Virus genome (UHGV): UHGV-0125821
Length of the DNA stretch: 64,000 nt
Direction: 5' to 3' (one strand)
Source: a virus
Shown here: one piece after another, positions 4,269 to 45,790 of the stretch
Layout of the letters: each line of letters opens with the position of its first letter
Numbering within the stretch: the first letter of the stretch is position 1
Made by a program: the position numbers and the translations under genes
Notes under the pieces: model-generated
Database searches by the model: none
What the model saw: the letters and a program-made list of their open reading frames with translations, nothing else
What the model was told of the DNA's origin: nothing

Positions 4269-4376
4269 CGTTAGGTATTTAATATTAATTTTCTAATACA
4301 ATCATCTTTTTACCAGTCTATACAGTTTTAACATTCTCATTATCATCCCCTCGGTCATTTCCTGCCCGGGGGATTA

Positions 4377-7665: not shown

Positions 7666-8703
7666 TTACCAGAGCTTCGCGGCGTACTGCGTTTGGGGGA
7701 ATGTGTATCCGTAACGTTCTTCGATTGCTTTGCCGTATTTTTTACGAGCTTCATTCAGTTTAATGCCGGTCAGGTCGTCTCCAGAGGCCATCATTACGTC
7801 TAACAATTCCAGATCCATTTTATCCAGCCTTGCCATTGCTTCACGTGATGTACGTATCTTACGCTCAATGATATGGCGAATAGCCGGATCGGCATCCTCC
7901 AGCATCTTAGCGGATTTCTGCTTAAGGCTTTCATTGCGAATATCGATGTTCCTTAAGATGTACGACTTCGCAACGTAGCTTGGCTGGTGTTTTTCCAGGT
8001 CACGAACACGATATAAGTTAAAATCGCCGAGAAGGCTGCAAGGTACCGATTCGACGCCAGAATAAATTGTAATGCTCCGGCGTTCACCAACATTATTGAC
8101 AACGGGGATCGTTGTCTTCGGTAGTCTTGCGAAAACCAATGCACCATGTGCGCCAACTCTAAAGCGAGAAAGGGCATTGCTGCCTTCGATGTTTGTTGTC
8201 AGCACAACATCTGTATATGCCTCTTTACGCGCCCGGTAGATCTCGCCTTCAGGCTCAGCTTCAAAGAAGCGCTGTTCTTCTTCAAGATCGCCTACGATTT
8301 GAGAAAAAACCCTATTTTTCAGGCTTTTCTTTATGATTTTGTCGTATTTTTTTAGCAATTGTTCACGTGTAAATGTACGTGTTGTTGTAGCGCTTTGCAC
8401 AACGACATGCGTGCTTTGATTGGTGTCCTCAATGATGAATGGGATCGGAGAATATACAGACTCAACAATGTTCGACGCTTTGCCGTCGGCATCGCGGCAC
8501 ATGTCAACGAAGGCTTTCCATTCAGCAAGACATTTTTCAGCTTCTTCTAATATGTTTTGGTCATGCGTTAATGCAACATGGCGGAATTCCTCGCCAGCAT
8601 AACTGGTATCATGGAAAACAGAGTTTGCGACCACCAGCTCTTTCCACCGTTCAGCGGTTTGCAGGAACCGTTTGTACTCTTTCTCGATCGACTTCTTACT
8701 CAT
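7666..8703 (-). CDS. hypothetical 345-aa protein at the position of the P1 c1 repressor
   Basis: antisense between pacB-like and rox/dre; operator-like motif 20 bp upstream of its start; function not established. Confidence 0.6.
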   Translation of the reverse strand: MSKKSIEKEYKRFLQTAERWKELVVANSVFHDTSYAGEEFRHVALTHDQNILEEAEKCLAEWKAFVDMCRDADGKASNIVESVYSPIPFIIEDTNQSTHVVVQSATTTRTFTREQLLKKYDKIIKKSLKNRVFSQIVGDLEEEQRFFEAEPEGEIYRARKEAYTDVVLTTNIEGSNALSRFRVGAHGALVFARLPKTTIPVVNNVGERRSITIYSGVESVPCSLLGDFNLYRVRDLEKHQPSYVAKSYILRNIDIRNESLKQKSAKMLEDADPAIRHIIERKIRTSREAMARLDKMDLELLDVMMASGDDLTGIKLNEARKKYGKAIEERYGYTFPQTQYAAKLW

Positions 8704-8718
8704 TATTCCTACTCGATT

Positions 8719-8738
8719 TAGTTTTCTAACATAAAATT
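8719..8738. promoter_or_regulatory. operator-like motif copy
   Basis: TTATGTTAGAAAACTAAATC on minus strand. Confidence 0.45.
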
Positions 8739-8914: not shown

Positions 8915-8946
8915 TAACTTTAAATAATTGGCATTATTTAAAGTTA
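8915..8946. other. rox-like recombination site
   Basis: TAACTTTAAATAATTGGCATTATTTAAAGTTA; reverse complement equals the rox sequence as I recall it. Confidence 0.85.
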
Positions 8947-10127: not shown

Positions 10128-10130
10128 ATT

Positions 10131-10148
10131 AAATTTCTAACACATCTT
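10131..10148. promoter_or_regulatory. operator-like motif copy
   Basis: GATGTGTTAGAAATTT on minus strand, just after dre stop. Confidence 0.45.
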
Positions 10149-20589: not shown

Positions 20590-20630
20590 AATGTATACCG
20601 ACTCTGTTTTGTTCCGAGCGGTAAAATAAT

Positions 20631-20667
20631 ATGTTAGAAAACTAAAATCAATGTTCTAACACATTTT
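20631..20667. promoter_or_regulatory. inverted pair of operator-like motifs
   Basis: ATGTTAGAAAACTAAAAT and TGTTCTAACACA facing each other. Confidence 0.5.
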
Positions 20668-24708: not shown

Positions 24709-24872
24709 AACATAAGCACTGCGAAAAGCTCAATACCAAGCTCAAGTAGCGCCAACGCCCCGAAAAACAACACATAGAACAGGCCAATCTCATTCACAGA
24801 TGGCTGGTGGATCGCACTTAAAGCTATAAGCATCATGTCCTCCAAACAGTTATCAGGAATGATATTAATGTT

Positions 24873-24906
24873 TTGTGTTAGAAAATCAATTTTGAATATC
24901 TAACTG
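24873..24906. promoter_or_regulatory. operator-like motif with partial inverted half-site
   Basis: TGTGTTAGAAAATCAA ... TATCTAACTG in divergent promoter region. Confidence 0.45.
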
Positions 24907-24953: not shown

Positions 24954-25532
24954 ATGCAGAAACAGAGCTATTGGGAGAAACAGAGACAAAAAGCCATGCA
25001 AAAATTGGCTGACCCAGCCTGGCGAGAGGAACAAAGGGCAAAGCGCCTTCAACAAGCTCAACGCCAGCAGCAACGAGCGAGAGAAAAAGCCGCATCGCCT
25101 GAATATCGGCAAAAGAGAATTGAAAAAGCAAAGCAATATGACCAGCGGAGAAAAGAGAAAACTGTATCCGCTCCGTCCAAAAAAACACGCACGTCACGCG
25201 GCCTGAAGGGCAGATCACTCACAGCCGATGAACGCCGGATACAGACCGCTATCGGTACTCTCCCCTGCATTGCCTGCCATATTCACGGGCAACATAGCCC
25301 AGTGGTATCCCTGCACCATATCTTCGGGAGAACGGCAGAGAACGCGCATAAATATGTCCTCCCTTTGTGTAAATGGCACCACCAGTACGCAGCGCCAGCC
25401 GAGGTCCGAGAACAATATCCCTGGCTGGTCCCTGTTCATGCTGACGGAAAAATAGGCGGAAAAGCAGATTTCATGCGGCACAATGCCGATGAAATGACGT
25501 TATATCAGATGGCGATTGAATTGATAAATTAG
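24954..25532 (+). CDS. ref: HNH-type endonuclease, Ref-like
   Basis: LPCIACHIHG ... LHHIFGRT ... LCKWHHQ His/Cys motifs; similarity to P1 Ref is from memory. Confidence 0.6.
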   Translation: MQKQSYWEKQRQKAMQKLADPAWREEQRAKRLQQAQRQQQRAREKAASPEYRQKRIEKAKQYDQRRKEKTVSAPSKKTRTSRGLKGRSLTADERRIQTAIGTLPCIACHIHGQHSPVVSLHHIFGRTAENAHKYVLPLCKWHHQYAAPAEVREQYPWLVPVHADGKIGGKADFMRHNADEMTLYQMAIELIN

Positions 25533-25548
25533 TTTTCTAACATTTTAA
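25531..25548. promoter_or_regulatory. operator-like motif copy
   Basis: AAATGTTAGAAAACT on minus strand. Confidence 0.45.
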
Positions 25549-25867: not shown

Positions 25868-26031
25868 CTGTTCGCTACCTCAACTTTCAAATCAAGAACA
25901 TTACTGGCGGTTGCTATGACTGGTTTGTCACTCTCGGAAAAGAAGTGATCACCGGGAAGCTGGATGAAGTGAAAGCTAAAGCAATGGCCTACGCCTGCAA
26001 GCAAGCCCGGAAGAAATCCGCCAAAGCATAA
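25864..26031 (+). CDS. 55-aa hypothetical protein
   Basis: MTVRYLNFQIKNITGGCYDWFV...; followed by terminator. Confidence 0.35.
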   Translation: MTVRYLNFQIKNITGGCYDWFVTLGKEVITGKLDEVKAKAMAYACKQARKKSAKA

Positions 26032-26135
26032 AATACTGACTGTTGCGCCCTGGCATTATCGTGGGGTATATTTCTACGGCACCTTAGAAAAACGGGTGCC
26101 GGGATTGGAACCCCGGATAATGCAAAAGGCGACAC

Positions 26136-26160
26136 AGACGCCGAAAGCGTCTTTTTTTTT
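26136..26160 (+). terminator. intrinsic terminator
   Basis: GACGC cgaaa GCGTC followed by T9. Confidence 0.6.
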
Positions 26161-26345
26161 GTGTCATGCCATCGCACAGCCATACGTAGCGTTTAGCTCA
26201 GAGATCAATGGTAGTGCTGGCTGGGCTGCCGAAAGGCAGGCCGGTTCCCTTTTGCGCCGGTAGTTCCAACCCAGTCAGTGCTACCGCCATTGAGATTGGA
26301 ACCTCACGCGGTAGCTCCTTAAATTAGCAAAAGGAGGCTGCCAAT

Positions 26346-26516
26346 ATGGCTACTATCCCTACCCCAACTCATTCTGAATTTATCTGGCGTTTCTATTCCT
26401 GCCAAAAGCACCTGTATATCTGCGTCATGGCTGCTACCGAATCAGAGGCGCGCTCATACCTTCCCGAAGAACCCTGCATTTTTGCTGCTCGCTTCACTCT
26501 AATTGAAAGGTCTTAA
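26346..26516 (+). CDS. 56-aa hypothetical protein
   Basis: strong SD AGGAGG; MATIPTPTHSEFIWRFYSCQ... Confidence 0.4.
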   Translation: MATIPTPTHSEFIWRFYSCQKHLYICVMAATESEARSYLPEEPCIFAARFTLIERS

Positions 26517-26638
26517 CGATAGTCTGCCACGAATAGTTACTTCCACTGCCTAAAGTTATTTAATTGCATTACAAAGTGTAAATTAGTAACATTAGAATCT
26601 CACACAGCACTATAACTATATGTTTTTTATGTAAAAGG

Positions 26639-26998
26639 ATGATAATCGTGGCTACTAAAATTAAACTTGAAAACCCTCAAACTGGCGAATCAATCACCGG
26701 TTTTTATGGTTTTTCCTGGACTACATTCTTGTTTGGTGCTTTTCCAGCTTTGTTCAGGAAAGACTTTATAACTTTTATTGGGGTATTTGTAGTGATGCTG
26801 ATACTGGCATTCCTCACAGCCGGAATTGGCCCGTGGATTGCCTCATTTATCTGGGCGTTCATGTATAATAAATATTTCACCGTAAATAAGATAAAACAAG
26901 GCTTCATTTTTGCTGGTTCTCACACAGAAAATGAGTTGGCTGCTAGCAAGCTAGGATTGTCATTAAATCAAAACAACTGCAAAACTATTACCGAGTAA
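26639..26998 (+). CDS. membrane protein (2-3 TM helices), AT-rich gene
   Basis: 119 aa; low GC relative to backbone. Confidence 0.6.
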   Translation: MIIVATKIKLENPQTGESITGFYGFSWTTFLFGAFPALFRKDFITFIGVFVVMLILAFLTAGIGPWIASFIWAFMYNKYFTVNKIKQGFIFAGSHTENELAASKLGLSLNQNNCKTITE

Positions 26999-27037: not shown

Positions 27038-27871
27038 TCACGAATCTCTCTGACAATTCAGAAACATAAACGCCCGCTTGTCTGTTAAATCCGTAACATA
27101 ATACTCTCTCATGCCTGTAGGTTTTATTCTACGAGCATATACAAACTTATGAACTGGTTGTTTTTCCCCATAACTTACATCAGTCCTAAATTCATCAACC
27201 ACGCTACCATCTTTTTCAGTTTCCTTTCTCACTAGCTGATTTTCTAATACAGGCTTTGATTCGTCCATGCCACTAAAAGCATCCTGACCTGTGCTGTTGC
27301 CTCGGTTTCCGCGTGGCAAATCCCATGAAAAATAAGTGCCATAGTCAGTAATCACACGATCCCATGTTCCGGAATCCCCCATATAGTTAGAACGCTCCCC
27401 CTTGTAAGTTACAGCCACCTTACAGGCATACGTTTCACCATTATTTTTTTTATCATGTCCAGCCATGCTTGCAGGAGTTGCAGGGGAATTATGAATAGAT
27501 GCGCTTACATCATCTTGCGTTAATTCCTCAACTGGAGCAAATTCATATATGGGTGTGCCGAGGCTATTTAAATATAACTTATATCTAACCCTAAGCGCAC
27601 TTCCATCAGAGAATTCATACGTTCCCAGACATTGGAGCTTATTTTTTTCTCTTATCTCATTGATCTGATTATAAGCATCAATTACAGAGATTGCTTCCTG
27701 ATCGTCCTTAAGCAGTTCATTATAATCATCGATTAACATCTGTCTGGTTTTAGGGGCATTACAGTCAATTTTGCTAAAATCATAAGCAAAGGCAAATGTG
27801 GGAACAGAGAGAGCAACAACAGTAGCAAGTATTGTTGAGGAACATCTTTTCCCATTTTTTATAAAAAACAT
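27038..27871 (-). CDS. secreted protein with cleavable signal peptide, AT-rich gene
   Basis: start set at MFFIKNGKR (SD GGAG); signal peptide ending AFA; 4 Cys in mature part. Confidence 0.6.
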   Translation of the reverse strand: MFFIKNGKRCSSTILATVVALSVPTFAFAYDFSKIDCNAPKTRQMLIDDYNELLKDDQEAISVIDAYNQINEIREKNKLQCLGTYEFSDGSALRVRYKLYLNSLGTPIYEFAPVEELTQDDVSASIHNSPATPASMAGHDKKNNGETYACKVAVTYKGERSNYMGDSGTWDRVITDYGTYFSWDLPRGNRGNSTGQDAFSGMDESKPVLENQLVRKETEKDGSVVDEFRTDVSYGEKQPVHKFVYARRIKPTGMREYYVTDLTDKRAFMFLNCQRDS

Positions 27872-28163
27872 TTCATTAACTCCATACTTTACCATCTTAG
27901 CCGCGAGCGCGGTCCCTAAAACCCTTAACTTCACTGCACCGTCCTTCATGCAATCAAAATGACTTTTATGTTATAAAAATAATCAGCAAAATCAACATGA
28001 TTTAGGCCAAATTTCGGTCAAAAATAAAATCCACAAAAAGTGGTTGACACTATTTTGGAAATCACAAACTGCACATAATCCATCGCGCTAACGGCTCCCG
28101 TTGAAGGTTCTTTTGACGATTAACTTTCAGCCGAAGCGCGGTAGGGAGTCATAACGCCAAAGC

Positions 28164-29004: not shown

Positions 29005-29197
29005 GTCATTCACTCCGTTTAATTTTTAATCTAATGCCAGCAAATGAAGCTGGCCCCCGCATAAAGATTAATGAAAGTCACTTGTCACCAGTGAGGGGAT
29101 TTATGAACCACATCCCCCTGAACTGGTGGCCTGTCTGTTTCTCGCATTTCACACCCTGCATACAGTTTCCCCCAGGTTATGACTGAGAGGCTTTGTT

Positions 29198-31496: not shown

Positions 31497-31697
31497 TTAT
31501 GGATAGTTAAAAGATTCAACAGGTGATGGTGGTTGAATTGGGTAATGTTTCTTCTCGTACTCCTCAATGAGAAGACTCATAACCTCAAAGAAATCACCTT
31601 CCGGAGTATTCATTTCCGGTTCGTTATCGAACATCGGTTCGACCGCACGCAGTGCGGCCTCATAATCTTGTTCTGTACGGATAGGTTTAATGTTCAT
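31497..31697 (-). CDS. 66-aa protein resembling the N-terminal domain of HigA-type antitoxins, no HTH
   Basis: IRTEQDYEAALRAVEPMFDNEPEMNTPEGDFFEVMSLLIEEYEKKHYPI; no obvious SD. Confidence 0.45.
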   Translation of the reverse strand: MNIKPIRTEQDYEAALRAVEPMFDNEPEMNTPEGDFFEVMSLLIEEYEKKHYPIQPPSPVESFNYP

Positions 31698-34186: not shown

Positions 34187-35167
34187 GTGGCCCAGGAGTT
34201 ACAACAATATTTTCTACAGTCAGTGCTCATTAACGATAACAAAGTGCCACGAGACTGGATTTTTACCGCAGTATATGTAGAAAAAACCAGCCTCAAAGCC
34301 CCTTTGCTAAAACTGGAAATTCATGACGCTACCGGCACCGTAATTGATGACTGGAAAGCCAAATACGGTGCATCGCTGGTGGCTGAAATGGGCGATCCAA
34401 ACGGTAATGCAGGCACTTTTAAAACAGATTTCTTTGTTACGTCTGCAATGCTGGCTGGTGATGTTGTTACCGTTATTGCTGTCAGTGAAGACGTGCGCAG
34501 GTTTAAGATCCCCTCCCCGCGCACAAATTTACATACCAACAAAACACCAGACGCTATATTCAAGGCATATTCCGGCAAACTTAAAATTACCAGCAGCGTG
34601 CTAAAACGCGCAGTTACATATCATCTGAATGCCGGTGACAAACCGTCAAAAATGCTTTCGGAGATAGCGCGAGACAAAGGTGCATTGTGTTGGGTATGTC
34701 GGGGGGAATTTAACTTTTACACCCTGGCTGATCTGATGAAGCAAACGCCATCATTTACCTACGAGGGGAATAACCCTAAAGCAGAATACACTTTGTCCAA
34801 AATGCGCCTACTCCAACAGGAACATGCGACAACAGCAAAGAATCAATATCGTTTTGTTGGGTATTCCATGACCGATGGCTACGTCGAATATGGCGATAGC
34901 TCACTCCCAGTGCGTTATATATCCGACTCTGATATGGAAACTCTTCGCAATATGCAGCTGTCTCTCGTCCCCAAAATGGATATAGAAGTCGCAGGCAATC
35001 CTGATATAAAACCGGGGATGGTAATAGAGATTATCGTATACCGCTATGACCAGGAAAACCGCATTGATGAATCAATGCCCCGTAAGCTGATAGTAAAAAA
35101 TGTTGCGCACTTTGAGGACCGCGTAGGCTACACAACACGAATGATATTGGGAGTGCCTAACAAATGA
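34187..35167 (+). CDS. hypothetical protein, possible baseplate component
   Basis: 326 aa, adjacent to gpV-like gene. Confidence 0.55.
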   Translation: MAQELQQYFLQSVLINDNKVPRDWIFTAVYVEKTSLKAPLLKLEIHDATGTVIDDWKAKYGASLVAEMGDPNGNAGTFKTDFFVTSAMLAGDVVTVIAVSEDVRRFKIPSPRTNLHTNKTPDAIFKAYSGKLKITSSVLKRAVTYHLNAGDKPSKMLSEIARDKGALCWVCRGEFNFYTLADLMKQTPSFTYEGNNPKAEYTLSKMRLLQQEHATTAKNQYRFVGYSMTDGYVEYGDSSLPVRYISDSDMETLRNMQLSLVPKMDIEVAGNPDIKPGMVIEIIVYRYDQENRIDESMPRKLIVKNVAHFEDRVGYTTRMILGVPNK

Positions 35168-35817
35168 AGCGTAGAGCGCAAATTGTTGGAACTGTGCACC
35201 CGGCAGGGCTTATGCGTGCTCAAGTCCGTGTTTTACCTGACTGGAATGGCGTTCCTGATGACGATCTACCCTGGGCGGAATACCAGTTACCCATCGGGAA
35301 CGCTTTTGTACCTACAGTCAAAGGTGACCTGGTCTGGGTAGAGTTTCCTTATTTAGATGTTAACGGTCGAATAGACACCAGACGCCCAATGATAGTTGGT
35401 GCCGCTCAGGATGCACCGGGAGGAATTCCAAACGTTGCACCAGAAGCATCTGGCAAAGGCAACGGCTGGACGCCGCCGGAAGTAGATGGAGCACCTCCCC
35501 GCCCCCAAATCTCAGCAACGAAAGACTTCGTTATTCACCGCAACAATATTCTTGAAGTACGAACTGCTGGTGGCGGCTATGAAATTGCCAATACGGCAGC
35601 AGGCTCAAGGATTGGCATGAATGAGTCCGGGCAGATATATATCATTGGTCCGGCTGATGTAATCGTGAATGCAGGAGGGAGTGTTAACGTCAAATCAGCC
35701 AACAACATCAATGTTAATGGGGAAAATATAGCTGTCACCGCTAACGGAGACATAGCTTTCAAGGCAGGAGGAACCTTTCAGGCCACTGCTGGCAACTTCG
35801 ATTTCAAGAAAGGATAG
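35164..35817 (+). CDS. baseplate spike/hub protein (gpV-like)
   Basis: N-terminal OB-like VRVLPDW...LPWAEY...VKGDLVWVEF, C-terminal beta-helix repeats. Confidence 0.65.
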   Translation: MKRRAQIVGTVHPAGLMRAQVRVLPDWNGVPDDDLPWAEYQLPIGNAFVPTVKGDLVWVEFPYLDVNGRIDTRRPMIVGAAQDAPGGIPNVAPEASGKGNGWTPPEVDGAPPRPQISATKDFVIHRNNILEVRTAGGGYEIANTAAGSRIGMNESGQIYIIGPADVIVNAGGSVNVKSANNINVNGENIAVTANGDIAFKAGGTFQATAGNFDFKKG

Positions 35818-35826
35818 AAAATGCAC

Positions 35827-35870
35827 CCATTTGTGTTAGATAATTAATATGTATTTTCTAACACAAATGG
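35827..35870. promoter_or_regulatory. palindromic operator pair
   Basis: CCATTTGTGTTAGA, 16-bp spacer, TCTAACACAAATGG; ends 7 bp before rdgC ATG. Confidence 0.55.
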
Positions 35871-35876
35871 TGAGAC

Positions 35877-36782
35877 ATGAGATCAGTCGCTTTCAAAAAT
35901 ATCTTCATCTATCGTCTTTCACGCGAAGTTAGCTGGGATACTGCAGAAGTAAATGCAGCCCTTAGCAAGTTTGTGTTTACCCCATGCGGTTCTCAGGATA
36001 TGGCTAAAGCTGGTTGGACCTCCGTTCTTGGTGACAACCTCACCCATGAATACCAGGGTTTTCTTCTGATACAGCATAAACGAGAGGAAAAAATCCTACC
36101 CTCTCAAGTGCTCAAAGAAGAGTTACAGAAAAAAATCCTGACACTTGAAGAAGAGCAAGACAGAAAGCTGAAGAAGACTGAAAAAGATTCGCTGAAGGAT
36201 GAAGTGCTTCACTCTCTGCTTCCTCGTGCTTTCACGAGAAAATCAGTCGCTAAAATCCTGATAGACCGAAGCAATCATCTGGTTTTTGTCGAGGCCAGCA
36301 GTGCTAAAAAAGCAGAGGATCAGCTGGCTTTGTTACGGAAATCGCTTGGCAGCTTGCCCGTTGTCCCCTTCTCTCCGAAAGACCCATTAGAACTGACCAT
36401 CACTGGCTGGATTAAAAATGGCTTCCCGAACGGTTTCCGTGCCGGTGAGGAAGCGACCTTAAAAGCATTGCTTGATGATGGCGGCGCGGTCCGCTGCAAA
36501 AAAGTGGACCTGCTATCCGACGAGATCATGAGTCATATAGAAGCTGGTAAGGTTGCAACCACAGTTGCGGTTAACTGGCAAGACCGTGCATTTTTCAGAC
36601 TGAATGACGATATGAGTATCAAGGCTTTGTCGTTCAGCGACGAATTGTACGACCAGAACGACGATATTGATCGAGAGGATGTTGCGCAACGATTTGACGC
36701 TGACTTTATCCTGTTTACTGCTGAATTATCCGCGATGTTCACTTCGCTGGTGGAGGCCGTTGGTGGTGAAGCTGAACGTTAA
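35877..36782 (+). CDS. rdgC: recombination-associated protein RdgC
   Basis: [14 protein letters not shown] ... [21 protein letters not shown] ... [18 protein letters not shown] parallels E. coli RdgC. Confidence 0.9.
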
Positions 36783-36795
36783 CAATAGACCTCTG

Positions 36796-37446
36796 ATGGT
36801 GAGTCTTTGTGATTTCACGGGGAAAATGGTCGCCCCCTGGCTGGAGCATGGTATAGATGCTGTTATCGTCGATCCACAACACGCAGAGACCAGAGATGAG
36901 CTGATGCAATCAGGCGCAGTTCTGACACGTATCAGTGCGATTATCGATAGTGATGAAGTTTATGCTTTTCTCCGAAATAATTTACAACGTATTGTGTTTT
37001 TAGCTGGTTTTCCGCCGTGCACGGACCTTGCTGTTTCCGGTGCGCGCTGGTTTGCGCATAAGGCTGACAAAGATCCGTTTTTCCAGTTCAAAGCAATGCA
37101 GGTTGTCTGGCAGTGTTATGACATTGCAAAGATGATCGGTTGTCCGTACATGATTGAAAATCCGGTCAGCAAAATATCGACATTCTGGCGTAAGCCAGAT
37201 CACATCTTTCACCCTTACTTCTTCACTGCATATTGTCAGGAAGATAACTACACCAAAAAAACATGCCTCTGGAGCGGCCAGGGCTTTGTCATGCCTGATG
37301 CCCTAATGGACGAATCATTAGGCAAGCCAGATAACAGAATCCATGCCGCGCCACCAGGGCCTGACAGGGCTAATTTTCGAAGTGCTACTCCACATGGATT
37401 CGCAAAGGCAGTTTTCGAAGCGAATAAGGGGGTGCTCTATGAGTAA
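36796..37446 (+). CDS. small C5-cytosine-methyltransferase-like protein
   Basis: FTG, GFPPC and ENP motif-like segments; too short for a full MTase; start set at MVSLCDF. Confidence 0.4.
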   Translation: MVSLCDFTGKMVAPWLEHGIDAVIVDPQHAETRDELMQSGAVLTRISAIIDSDEVYAFLRNNLQRIVFLAGFPPCTDLAVSGARWFAHKADKDPFFQFKAMQVVWQCYDIAKMIGCPYMIENPVSKISTFWRKPDHIFHPYFFTAYCQEDNYTKKTCLWSGQGFVMPDALMDESLGKPDNRIHAAPPGPDRANFRSATPHGFAKAVFEANKGVLYE

Positions 37447-38344
37447 ATCTATAGCAAGCATAGCCATAGAAAAACAGGATACGATGGCTGAAATTAGCTA
37501 TATGCGCACCATTCGGACTCCGGATGAATATGAGCGTCCGATATTCAAATGGGTAGGTGGTAAATTCTCAGAATTGCCTACAGTGCTTGAGCATCTACCA
37601 CACGGTAAGCGGTTAATAGAACCATTCGTTGGTGGCGGTTCCGTATTTACGAATGCAGGATTTTGCCACAACCTGCTTAATGATATTAACGGTGACCTGA
37701 TTAACTTCTATCAGACATTGCAGCGAGAAGGACATTCGCTCGTCACGCTGTCATATAGTTTTTTCCAAAATTACAACAACGCTGACGCTTACCTCGAAGT
37801 GCGTGAGGCATTTAACAGAGGAAAGTATGACCAGCTACATCATGCTGCCGCCTTTTTGTACCTTAATCGGCACTGTTTTAATGGCGTAACGCGGTACAAC
37901 CAAAATGGCGAGTTCAACGTGGGGTATGGCAAATACAAAGCGCCCTACTTCCCACATGCAGAGATGGAGGCATTTTTGGCTGATGACGTACTCAAAAACA
38001 CGTCCTTTGTATCAGGTGACTTTGCTGGCGTCATCGAGGCGGCTGGTGAAGGCGATGTGATTTTTTGCGATCCGCCGTATGAACCGCTGCCGGATACAGA
38101 AGGGTTTACCAGTTATTCAGGAAATAGCTTCCGTTTCGACGAACAGAAACGGCTGGTATCTCTATTGGTGGAAGCCCACCAGCGCGGCGCTAAGGTAGTG
38201 ATAACAAATAGTGGTGCGCCAAACATCCGTGAACTATATGAAGGAAACGGGTTTAAAGTACATCATATGGCAGCCAGACGGTCGGTGTCCTGCAAGGCGT
38301 CAACACGTGTAGTTGCTAACGATATAATTGCAATAATGAAGTAA
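37439..38344 (+). CDS. dam: DNA adenine methyltransferase (Dam family)
   Basis: FKWVGGK, EPFVGGGSVF, DPPY motifs; start set at MSKSIAS. Confidence 0.85.
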   Translation: MSKSIASIAIEKQDTMAEISYMRTIRTPDEYERPIFKWVGGKFSELPTVLEHLPHGKRLIEPFVGGGSVFTNAGFCHNLLNDINGDLINFYQTLQREGHSLVTLSYSFFQNYNNADAYLEVREAFNRGKYDQLHHAAAFLYLNRHCFNGVTRYNQNGEFNVGYGKYKAPYFPHAEMEAFLADDVLKNTSFVSGDFAGVIEAAGEGDVIFCDPPYEPLPDTEGFTSYSGNSFRFDEQKRLVSLLVEAHQRGAKVVITNSGAPNIRELYEGNGFKVHHMAARRSVSCKASTRVVANDIIAIMK

Positions 38345-38346
38345 AA

Positions 38347-38376
38347 AACGCCGCAGTAGCGGCGTTTACTTTTTTA
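38347..38376. terminator. bidirectional intrinsic terminator between dam and glnS
   Basis: AACGCCGC agta GCGGCGTT with T-runs on both strands. Confidence 0.6.
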
Positions 38377-38392
38377 TGTGGCGAAATACCTA

Positions 38393-40054
38393 TTAACCTA
38401 ACTTCGCCCAGGTATCACGCAGCCCAACGGTGCGGTTAAATACCGGTTTTTCCGCCGTAGAATGGCGGCTGTCGAGGCAGAAATAACCTTCACGCTCAAA
38501 CTGGAATGCTTTACCCGCTACCGCTTCTTTCAGCGACGGTTCAGCAAAACCCTGTTTGATCACCAGCGATTCCGGGTTAATCACCGACAGGAAATCATCC
38601 GCAGCACCTGGGTTCGGCACGCTGAACAGACGATCGTACAGGCGGATTTCAACCGGCAGCGCATGTGCCGCGCTCACCCAGTGAATAACGCCTTTCACTT
38701 TACGACCATCTGCCGGATCTTTGCTTAAGGTGTCGGCGTCATAAGTACAGAAGATGGTGGTGATATTGCCTTCGGCATCTTTCTCCACGCGTTCAGCCTT
38801 AATGACGTAAGCATTACGCAGACGCACTTCTTTACCCAGCACCAGACGTTTGTACTGCTTGTTAGCTTCTTCGCGGAAATCGGCGCGGTCGATCCAAATC
38901 TCACCGCTAAACGGCACCTGACGGCTACCCATTTCCGGTTTGTTCGGATGGTTCGGCATGGTGACCATTTCGCCTTCGCCCTGGTAGTTTTCGATAACCA
39001 GTTTCACCGGATCGATAACCGCCATTGCGCGCGGCGCATTTTCGTTGAGATCTTCACGGATGCAGGATTCCAGCGACGCCATCTCAATGGTGTTGTCCTG
39101 CTTGGTCACGCCGATGCGTTTGCAGAACTCACGAATAGAAGCCGCAGTGTAACCACGACGACGCAGACCGGAAATGGTCGGCATACGCGGGTCATCCCAG
39201 CCTTCAACGTGCTTGTCGGTCACCAGCAGGTTCAGCTTACGCTTGGACATCACGGTGTATTCCAGATTCAGGCGCGAGAATTCGTACTGGCGCGGGTGAA
39301 CAGGAATGGTGATGTTGTCCAGCACCCAGTCGTACAGGCGACGGTTGTCCTGGAACTCAAGCGTACACAGAGAGTGCGTAATACCTTCCAGCGCATCGCT
39401 GATGCAATGGGTGAAGTCGTACATCGGGTAGATGCACCACTTGTTGCCAGTCTGGTGGTGTTCAGCAAATTTAATGCGGTACAGCACCGGATCGCGCATT
39501 ACGATAAATGGCGACGCCATGTCGATTTTCGCACGCAGGCAGGCTTTACCTTCTTCAAAACCACCGGTACGCATTTTTTCGAACAGCGCCAGGTTCTCTT
39601 CAACGCTGCGGTCGCGGTACGGGCTGTTTTTACCCGGCTGCGTCAGGGTGCCGCGGTATTCGCGGATCTGTTCCGGCGTCAGTTCATCAACGTACGCCAG
39701 GCCTTTATTGATCAGTTCGATCGCATAGGCGTGGAGCTGATCAAAATAATCGGAGGAGTAACGGACGTTACCAGACCAGTGAAAACCTAACCACTCAACG
39801 TCGTTTTTGATCGACTCAACATACTCGATATCTTCTTTTACCGGGTTAGTGTCGTCGAAACGCAGGTTGCACTGGCCTTTATAGTCCTGGGCGATCCCGA
39901 AGTTCAGGCAGATAGATTTCGCATGACCAATATGCAGATAGCCATTCGGTTCCGGCGGGAAACGGGTATGTACTGTGGTGTGCTTACCACTGGCCAGATC
40001 TTCATCGATGATCTGACGAATAAAGTTAGTCGGGCGGGCTTCTGCCTCACTCAT
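38393..40054 (-). CDS. glnS: glutaminyl-tRNA synthetase
   Basis: 553 aa essentially identical to enterobacterial GlnS as recalled; last residues read KLG. Confidence 0.95.
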
Positions 40055-40225: not shown

Positions 40226-40285
40226 TGGAACCAAAAAGGATGTAAAGGTGCACCAAATTAGTGGTGTATTGGTGCACCTTTGGTT
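40226..40285. repeat. GGTGCACC-type short repeats
   Basis: TTGGAACCA, GGTGCACCA, GGTGCACC downstream of parG-like gene. Confidence 0.4.
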
Positions 40286-45744: not shown

Positions 45745-45764
45745 AACTCTAATGATTTGTGTTA

Positions 45765-45790
45765 GAAAACTAAAATTAAATCACATAACA
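45765..45790. promoter_or_regulatory. operator-like motif copy
   Basis: TTTGTGTTAGAAAACTAAAATTAAATC between divergent genes. Confidence 0.5.

Follow-up and report, generated by a model that had tools for sequence, protein, structure and literature searches.

Between the stop codon of a baseplate gene similar to P1 gene 5 (35164..35817, + strand), with which the gp7-24-6-5 tail cluster ends, and the ATG of an RdgC/HrdC gene at 35877, the window (the whole stretch of 64,000 nucleotides analysed here) carries a long palindrome with the local sequence GGATAGAAAATGCACCCATTTGTGTTAGATAATTAATATGTATTTTCTAACACAAATGGTGAGACATG. Its left arm CCATTTGTGTTAGA (35827-35840, + strand) and its right arm TCTAACACAAATGG (35857-35870, + strand) are 14 nt long each, are exact reverse complements of each other and are separated by 16 nt, a geometry that had been given in the preliminary description of the site and that has been confirmed by direct reading and by a repeat finder. 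According to the latter, the arms can be extended inward to 18 nt each with one mismatch, leaving an 8-nt centre (35827-35844 / 35853-35870). The distance to the start codon, which had been stated as 7 bp, is correct within one base, as six bases (TGAGAC) lie between the right-arm end at 35870 and the ATG of hrdC. The 14-mer CCATTTGTGTTAGA has no second exact copy anywhere in the window. By rough arithmetic, ∼0.005 perfect inverted repeats of 14 nt with gaps not exceeding 20 nt are expected by chance (64000 × 21 / 4^14). The 64 kb contain eight inverted repeats of 13 nt or more with gaps not exceeding 40 nt, of which the hrdC palindrome is the second longest. Folded as RNA, the 56-nt segment reaches −21.3 kcal/mol as compared to −7.3 ± 2.4 kcal/mol for shuffled sequences (z = −5.9), a value equalled by none of 200 shuffles.

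The window shares 94% identity with phage D6, and its region 35000-38400 is 100% identical to an E. coli plasmid. This region is carried by 101 out of 5,426 complete E. coli genomes, and all of the 101 matches are located on plasmids. Accordingly, the window is a D6-type (P1-related) phage-plasmid of E. coli and not an integrated prophage. The lysogen of the earlier description is thereby one with a plasmid prophage of the D6/P1 type. Phage-plasmids of the D6 type are frequently found in E. coli, Salmonella, and Shigella, and public collections contain more than 200 D6-like plasmids. Genes have been assigned by mapping the D6 proteins onto the window; between the window and the RefSeq plasmid used for annotation an indel has been noticed near 26000. 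Around the palindrome, the D6 annotation lists counterparts of the P1 genes 26, 25, 7, 24, 6, and 5, followed by an hrdC gene labelled “similar to P1 gene hrdC”, by two methylase genes, one for a “putative” cytosine methylase and one for a Dam enzyme described as “similar to C-terminal half of P1 dmt”, and by glnS, which is phage-borne here.

In the window, hrdC (35877..36782, + strand) encodes an RdgC-family protein of 301 aa and is the first gene of the presumably controlled operon, followed as second gene by a D6 orf64-like DNA methyltransferase (36766..37446, + strand; phrog_757) and as third gene by a Dam-type N6-adenine methyltransferase (37439..38344, + strand; PF02086), which is similar to the C-terminal half of P1 dmt. 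The hrdC-dam unit is closed by a terminator-like GC hairpin (38346..38367), which faces glnS and has been reported for both strands by a terminator scan. The hrdC product is a full-length RdgC (Pfam PF04381, E = 6e-102, residues 6-298), with a strong match to E. coli RdgC (PDB 2OWL, E = 2.6e-109), 60-62% identity to the chromosomal RdgC of other Enterobacterales, and 55% identity to P1 HrdC, so that its initial description as close to the host protein has been a fair one. The range of 60-62% comes from a query of genome contigs with the RdgC protein, by which only chromosomal host rdgC genes were matched. The tail-gene cluster adjoining hrdC lies on the same strand and consists of late genes by P1 homology, and the scan predicts no terminator between gene 5 and hrdC. 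As hrdC thus follows directly downstream of this cluster, late read-through expression is possible.

Copies of a 21-nt motif across the window

The hrdC palindrome can be resolved exactly into two 21-nt copies of one asymmetric motif, which abut head to head. Copy L, CATTTGTGTTAGATAATTAAT, occupies 35828..35848 on the + strand (27.9 bits), and copy R, CATTTGTGTTAGAAAATACAT, occupies 35849..35869 on the − strand (25.7 bits), which brings the two centres 21 bp apart. A half-site search with mismatches has revealed related copies elsewhere in the window, and ten aligned copies yield a consensus of ∼ATTTGTGTTAGAAAAyTAAt. Based on such sites a 21-nt matrix has been derived, the training sites of which, including copy L, have been picked by eye, so that their own matrix scores are circular. 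With this matrix, 12 copies at ten loci have been found in the window at scores of at least 17 bits, among them the sites at 25528 and 27963, which were recovered even though they are absent from the training set. Independently of the matrix, matches to TGTTAGAAAA with at most one mismatch have been counted, giving 15 as compared to 6.0 ± 2.4 in shuffled sequence, and none of 100 shuffles has reached 15. As to the positions of the copies, all of the eight strongest loci are intergenic, which is expected with P ∼4e-8 given a non-coding share of 11.7% of the annotated sequence, and they are found 10-75 nt from a start codon.

Most copies are single. One lies 14 nt upstream of the c1 start (8717..8737, − strand), equivalent to P1 Oc1, and another one 73 nt upstream of lpa (4284..4304, − strand), equivalent to P1 Olpa/Op94. 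A further copy follows the cre stop codon (10128..10148, − strand), 53 nt upstream of the orf117-orf116-dut-orf114-isaA cluster. The copy between the divergent genes orf88 and ref (24870..24890, + strand) is equivalent to P1 Oref and is replaced by a full pair in some relatives, while the copy at the ref stop codon (25528..25548, − strand) lies upstream of the isrK-like RNA, the c4 RNA, and icd and is equivalent to P1 Oc4/Op51; the c4 RNA in the ref-icd region has been confirmed by Rfam. Between orf52 and gene 23 a copy is placed at 45754..45774 (+ strand), 10 nt from orf52, which runs on the − strand, and 129 nt from the major capsid gene 23. A weaker copy is found between simB and mat (27963..27983, + strand), P1 having an Omat as well, and a weak one of 18.2 bits lies within the simB coding sequence (27235..27255, − strand), no other site that reaches 17 bits being inside a gene. 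Paired copies occur in the window at the hrdC and pdcB loci; the abutting pair before pdcB (20626..20667, both strands) lies 37 nt upstream of this − strand gene and has the same geometry as at hrdC, all pairs sharing the 21-nt offset. The D6 genome contains 16 sites of at least 14 bits, mostly single, which comprise the sites of the window and extra ones flanking pmgS (pmgR/S), before the second icd copy, and before repL.

In view of these solitary copies, the characterization of the palindrome as a palindromic operator pair needs to be modified: the sites are indeed paired, but they are asymmetric sites of a monomer type, not the halves of a classical dimer palindrome. In the operators of lambda CI, P22 C2, and 434, one dimer reads both half-sites, which are 6-8 bp long and non-functional singly. 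The hrdC site resembles these systems in being a palindromic site over a candidate promoter that would be occupied in the lysogen, whereas each of its arms is a complete site of ∼17-21 bp that is mostly solitary elsewhere in the genome.

The upstream regions of phage relatives, taken from plasmid and IMG/VR collections, allow the conservation of the site to be followed. The core GTTAGATAATT-N8-TTTTCTAAC has been found unchanged in plasmids of E. coli, Shigella, and E. fergusonii, in which the flanking genes are ∼68-84% identical to those of the window, and the central 8 nt of the palindrome vary freely among the same plasmids. The core GTTAGATAATT of copy L is invariant in all relatives found. 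The same pattern has been observed in 26 IMG/VR contigs and 15 D6-type metagenome contigs, which were collected with search patterns that fixed the core. In a full scan of the diverged relative NZ_LR890273.1, the C1 of which is 80% identical, the same motif has been located at equivalent loci, including five pairs, each with the 21-nt offset.

Comparison with the C1 operators of P1

The protein presumed to bind the motif is encoded by c1 (7666..8703, − strand), a 345-aa homologue of the P1 C1 repressor, as judged from the D6 annotation (orf1, “similar to P1 gene C1”), alignment, and PHROG assignment. The C1 proteins of the window and of P1 are 21% identical over 268 aa (E = 1e-8), and both match phrog_1678 over their full length. 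In P1, 22 dispersed asymmetric C1 operators with the consensus ATTGCTCTAATAAATTT have been described (PMC8546580). The P1 record places C1 operators at c1/coi, lpa, ref, c4, mat, kilA-repL, pmgR, pmgT, ppp, 26, ssb, and ban, and it contains Odmt (former Op68) together with the promoter Pdmt before the uhr-hrdC-dmt operon. As the sites of the window precede c1, lpa, ref, c4-icd, mat/sim, and hrdC-dam, the motif occupies positions of C1 operators in P1.

Regarding the sequence of the sites, the two systems have diverged. A search for the P1/P7 consensus ATTGCTCTAATAAATTT with up to three mismatches has yielded no match in the window, and this absence of P1-type operators fits a different immunity specificity. 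Judged by its sequence, the hrdC site is not an operator of P1 specificity, and its divergence is to be expected under a different immunity specificity. Around a TCTAA core, a residual similarity of the D6-type and P1 matrices has been observed (4.95 as compared to 3.40 ± 0.53 for column shuffles, 3 out of 300 of which reach the former value), which is of modest significance and ambiguous in orientation. [quoted passage not shown]

The closest known counterpart of the hrdC site is P1 Odmt (Op68) with Pdmt, as in both cases a repressor operator would be found at the promoter of an operon for an RdgC homologue and a Dam-type methylase in a plasmid prophage of the P1 family, and the protein presumed to bind shares its family with P1 C1. 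In P1, however, a single 17-bp copy of ATTGCTCTAATAAATTT is located just upstream of the −35 element, and uhr precedes hrdC, whereas the window has two copies of different sequence directly before hrdC, over the putative −10 element and start, and behind a tail-gene cluster. The paired arrangement is reminiscent of the bivalent P1 operators Obanab (Op72ab) and Oc1ab (Op99ab), in which inverted asymmetric C1 sites form an incomplete palindrome over a promoter; in these, however, the 17-mers share 6 bp and are spaced by 11 bp from centre to centre, while the copies at hrdC have no overlap and a centre-to-centre distance of 21 bp. This distance corresponds to two helical turns, which places both hrdC copies on the same face of the DNA, and the 11-bp spacing of P1 and the 21-bp spacing of the D6 type would both bring paired sites onto one face of the helix.

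Taken together, we consider the palindrome to be, most likely, a bivalent operator of the C1 type that overlies the presumed promoter of the hrdC-methylase operon, and the counterpart of P1 Odmt/Op68. The original proposal, i.e., an immunity-repressor operator pair on the rdgC promoter that causes repression in the lysogen, is supported in this form by the motif sites, by P1 Odmt, by the overlap with the candidate promoter, and by the invariant core, from which we infer binding, promoter, and repression. Most likely, the hrdC operator is a well-supported yet fairly ordinary regulatory element, the site sequence and 21-bp pair geometry of which differ from P1. If the assignment is true, the palindrome provides an operator consensus and the first map of a C1 regulon for D6-type phage-plasmids. 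Such a map would predict silence in the carrier state for lpa, the late-gene activator, for the RecA-dependent nuclease Ref, for the antirepressor region, and for the RdgC/methylase operon, and the sites could be used for engineering or for immunity typing. C1 control of hrdC-dam would have been retained despite divergence of the repressor (21% identity), of the site, and of the gene order, which suggests that the timing of RdgC and Dam matters to these phages. P1 hrdC has been non-essential in a CRISPRi screen and is dispensable in the laboratory (PMC10695390); a large phenotype is consequently not expected.

Candidate promoter and proposed control of hrdC

A promoter scan has suggested a sigma-70-like element pair, with a candidate −35 hexamer TAGAAA (35815..35820, + strand), which includes the TAG stop codon of the gene-5-like coding sequence, and a candidate −10 hexamer GATAAT (35839..35844, + strand) inside operator copy L. 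The combination TAGAAA-18-GATAAT has 9 of 12 matches with a weak −35 element, and promoter-like sites in the region as a whole show no excess over chance (6 as compared to 6.5 expected). Two features of this candidate recur among relatives. The distance from the gene-5 stop codon with TAGAAA to GATAAT has been kept at 17-18 nt in four diverged lineages. Moreover, in the hrdC-type sites the left copy always reads GATAAT and the right copy always GAAAAT, also in searches that left those positions free, while both copies of the ref pair read GAAAAT. The T that creates GATAAT, and with it the one inner mismatch of the palindrome, is thus fixed in the left copy only, an asymmetry that fits a −10 hexamer facing hrdC. 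Based on these elements, transcription would start near 35851, and RNA folding predicts an unstructured leader for a transcript that begins at this position.

In the proposed mechanism, each arm of the palindrome would represent one copy of an asymmetric C1-type site of ∼17-21 bp, which elsewhere is mostly single, as are the C1 operators of P1. Copy L would cover the promoter spacer and the −10 hexamer GATAAT, and copy R the presumed start (∼35851) together with the ∼18 bases transcribed first. With two repressor molecules bound in the plasmid-prophage state, RNA polymerase would be kept off the promoter, and read-through from the upstream tail genes might be stopped in addition. Inactivation of C1 would then lead to early transcription of the operon with its unstructured leader. 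The original proposal needs to be modified in that read-through from the adjoining tail genes may also express hrdC late in infection; hrdC could even be expressed mainly by this route. A further feature is left unexplained by the operator model: the covariation of the outer five arm positions, since those positions vary among the other operators.

Alternative readings of the palindrome

The covariation of the outer arms leads to the alternative that the palindrome acts mainly or additionally as a + strand RNA stem-loop in read-through transcripts of the tail genes, which we regard as a possible but rather doubtful reading. The proposed hairpin of 14-18 bp would be formed just before the ribosome-binding region of hrdC in the gp7-24-6-5 read-through RNA, the gene 5-hrdC interval being free of a predicted terminator, and might serve as a processing or stability element (e.g., an RNase III-type site) or restrict how far late transcripts are translated into HrdC. 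The hairpin would be absent from RNA that begins within the loop. The outer approximately five arm positions are unconserved among the other operators of the window, and at hrdC they remain complementary through double changes (ATTTG/CAAAT, AATTG/CAATT, ATTATG/CATAAT, AACTG/CAGTT, CAATG/CATTG). As MAFFT gapped the right arm and thereby broke the pairing register, a gap-free, dyad-centred alignment of 15 distinct sequences has been used, in which RNAalifold finds 17 pairs, six of them with compensatory changes. The covariation score of 0.291 exceeds that of shuffled alignments (0.100 ± 0.019, none of 500 as high) and of slid partners (at most 0.086), the sequences being related and their core mostly fixed by the search. 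In the hrdC stem, 98.4% of the alignment cells are paired, and the hairpin is stable in every lineage, with −18.5 to −25.2 kcal/mol and z = −5.4 to −8.4. Among the single-sided changes on the + strand, seven cells are compatible with G-U pairing and two are of the A-C type, a weak bias (∼P = 0.09), and within one group of relatives a series of G-C, G-U, and A-U is visible. In the paired operator at ref, by comparison, the outer arm varies on one side only, and none of these changes is compensated.

The covarying positions are located outside of the conserved operator core, and they are not tied to the lineage of the repressor: the explanation that they reflect a lineage-specific repressor specificity has been rejected, as the other operators of a group-3 plasmid lack the AAACTG flank of its hrdC site. 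Against a role of the RNA, the inner 11 pairs never vary, which is demanded by sequence-specific recognition by a protein and not by a stem, and the same core is present at about ten single sites that are not palindromic. The position of the stem relative to the Shine-Dalgarno sequence and start codon is not conserved across the lineages, and a search at Rfam gathering thresholds has given no match at 35800-35900, the matches of the window being c4, the isrK-like RNA, and three tRNAs. Furthermore, template-switch correction of DNA quasipalindromes can yield covariation without selection, the related sequences are non-independent and most of them were collected with a pattern that fixes the core, and the 7:2 bias towards G-U is weak. 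As an extension of the hairpin reading, one may tentatively postulate that the same 44 bp are used twice, as a two-copy DNA operator in the prophage and as a selected 14-16 bp hairpin in late read-through RNA, although we rate this as rather unlikely. In such a case, selection on the RNA would keep the outer arms complementary and the repressor would keep the inner positions invariant, while the hairpin would process, stabilise, or translationally uncouple the tail and hrdC gene sets. The covarying outer stem is a small hint of a second, RNA-level layer, and this possible dual use of DNA and RNA is the sole part of the site that goes beyond expectation.

Returning to the DNA operator, the motif might be a real regulatory site that is bound not by C1 but by another phage-encoded DNA-binding protein or by a host factor. 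Besides C1, the element has further small genes for DNA-binding or regulator proteins, and in sequence the motif resembles the P1 operator only modestly, with C1 binding deduced from position and homology. Nevertheless, one copy lies 14 nt before c1 and others take the positions of P1 C1 operators before homologues of C1-controlled genes, which makes a different regulator quite improbable. The motif has also been kept in the relative with a C1 of 80% identity, and the window offers no P1-type operator as an alternative target of C1.

Far less probable still is a P1-type late promoter element, in which a 9-bp inverted repeat at −22 supports Lpa-assisted transcription and which would make hrdC a late gene. 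P1 late promoters do share with the hrdC site a short inverted repeat and a −10-like hexamer in a genome of the P1 family, and the window encodes an Lpa homologue (PF25716, E = 5e-56). The P1 −22 box, AAGTGACTT, is however unlike the motif in sequence, in its 9-bp size, and in the genes it serves. A search for the P1-type late box (a AAGTGACTT-like 9-mer, 4 nt, TAnnnT) has resulted in a single match in the window at 29065-29083 and none at hrdC, and inspection by eye of the regions upstream of late genes has revealed no clear late-promoter motif of D6. As the sequence differs and as the motif precedes early and immunity genes (c1, lpa, ref, and c4), with hrdC-dmt being C1-controlled in P1, this reading has been rejected. 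A LexA-type site (CTGT-N8-ACAG) has likewise been rejected from the sequence. Finally, an intrinsic terminator of the tail-gene operon can practically be dismissed: the stop codon closing the tail-gene cluster is indeed followed at once by a strong hairpin, but the stem of the latter is AT-rich, with three G-C pairs in the perfect 14 bp and four in the 17-pair stem, UGAGACAUG follows on the + strand without a U tract, and the terminator scan reports not the palindrome but the GC hairpin at 38346-38367.

A possible sequence replacement, and operator pairing

Nucleotide comparison with phage D6 has revealed near-identity in 35000-36200 and again in 37100-38400, whereas the intervening 36200-37100 carries ∼15-29 differences per 100 nt. 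This mosaic patch spans the C-terminal half of hrdC, the RdgC-like gene, together with most of the orf64 methylase gene that follows it. Because the patch falls in the C-terminal half, the HrdC protein of the window is only 90% identical to D6 HrdC, with neighbouring proteins being 99-100% identical. The patch looks like a recombination replacement within the hrdC operon.

A second pair of abutting copies of the 21-nt operator motif has been found at 20626-20667, 37 nt before pdcB and within a long minus-strand gene array. Its copies are set at the identical 21-nt offset as those of the pair preceding hrdC. In the diverged D6-like relative NZ_LR890273.1, the lpa and ref operator sites are also paired, and therefore the pairing of operator sites differs among lineages. 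A different conserved palindrome, ...CTCCT.TCTGTTAGATAATAGCATG.TTTTTTCTAACAA..., is common to several unrelated environmental contigs (metagenome loci L131, L133 and L142); it was caught by a loose search pattern and is not D6-like.

The c4/icd region and a lox-equivalent repeat

Rfam has recognized two plus-strand RNAs that closely follow the operator copy at 25528-25548 and precede icd, namely an isrK-like Hfq-binding RNA (26079-26157, 62.5 bits) and a c4 antisense RNA (26204-26291, 76.7 bits). For icd itself, in the region 26346-26650, 52 of the 71 residues have been matched to D6 icd, and the genes next after it in D6, the antirepressor gene (orf82) and pmgF (orf81), have no match anywhere in the window. 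In this copy, the immI-like antirepressor module seems to have undergone deletion or truncation.

The interval separating c1 from the cre-like recombinase gene contains a perfect 14-nt inverted repeat, TAACTTTAAATAAT-N4-ATTATTTAAAGTTA (8915-8946), with ATAACTT-like arms. Its position and these arms agree with "rox", the lox-equivalent site in the D6 annotation.

Late promoters

The only P1-type late-promoter −22 box accompanied by a −10 element in the 64 kb, AAGTGACTT TCAT TAATCT, has been located at 29065-29083 on the minus strand, between mat and gene 26; a homologue of Lpa, the P1-type late-gene activator, is nonetheless encoded. Given this single box despite the Lpa homologue, D6-type late promoters may use a different or looser box than those of P1. 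Heptamers of the form AAGTGAC/GTCACTT have been observed 5′ of several late genes.

Phage-borne glnS, tRNA genes and a partial HigA-like match

On the minus strand, a second HigA-like antitoxin gene (31503-31697) matches only 65 of the 119 residues of D6 orf72, and the equivalent gene in a near-identical plasmid has been labelled a pseudogene by RefSeq. The window further carries three tRNA genes (667-739, 745-817 and 2770-2842) and a complete glutaminyl-tRNA synthetase gene, glnS (38396-40054, minus strand), which is 99% identical to D6 orf62 and which the preliminary description might have mistaken for host DNA flanking an integrated prophage. A perfect 13-nt inverted repeat, AAAGGTGCACCAA-N12-TTGGTGCACCTTT (40244-40281), occupies the gap that separates orf61 from the glnS start and could be a candidate regulatory site for glnS.
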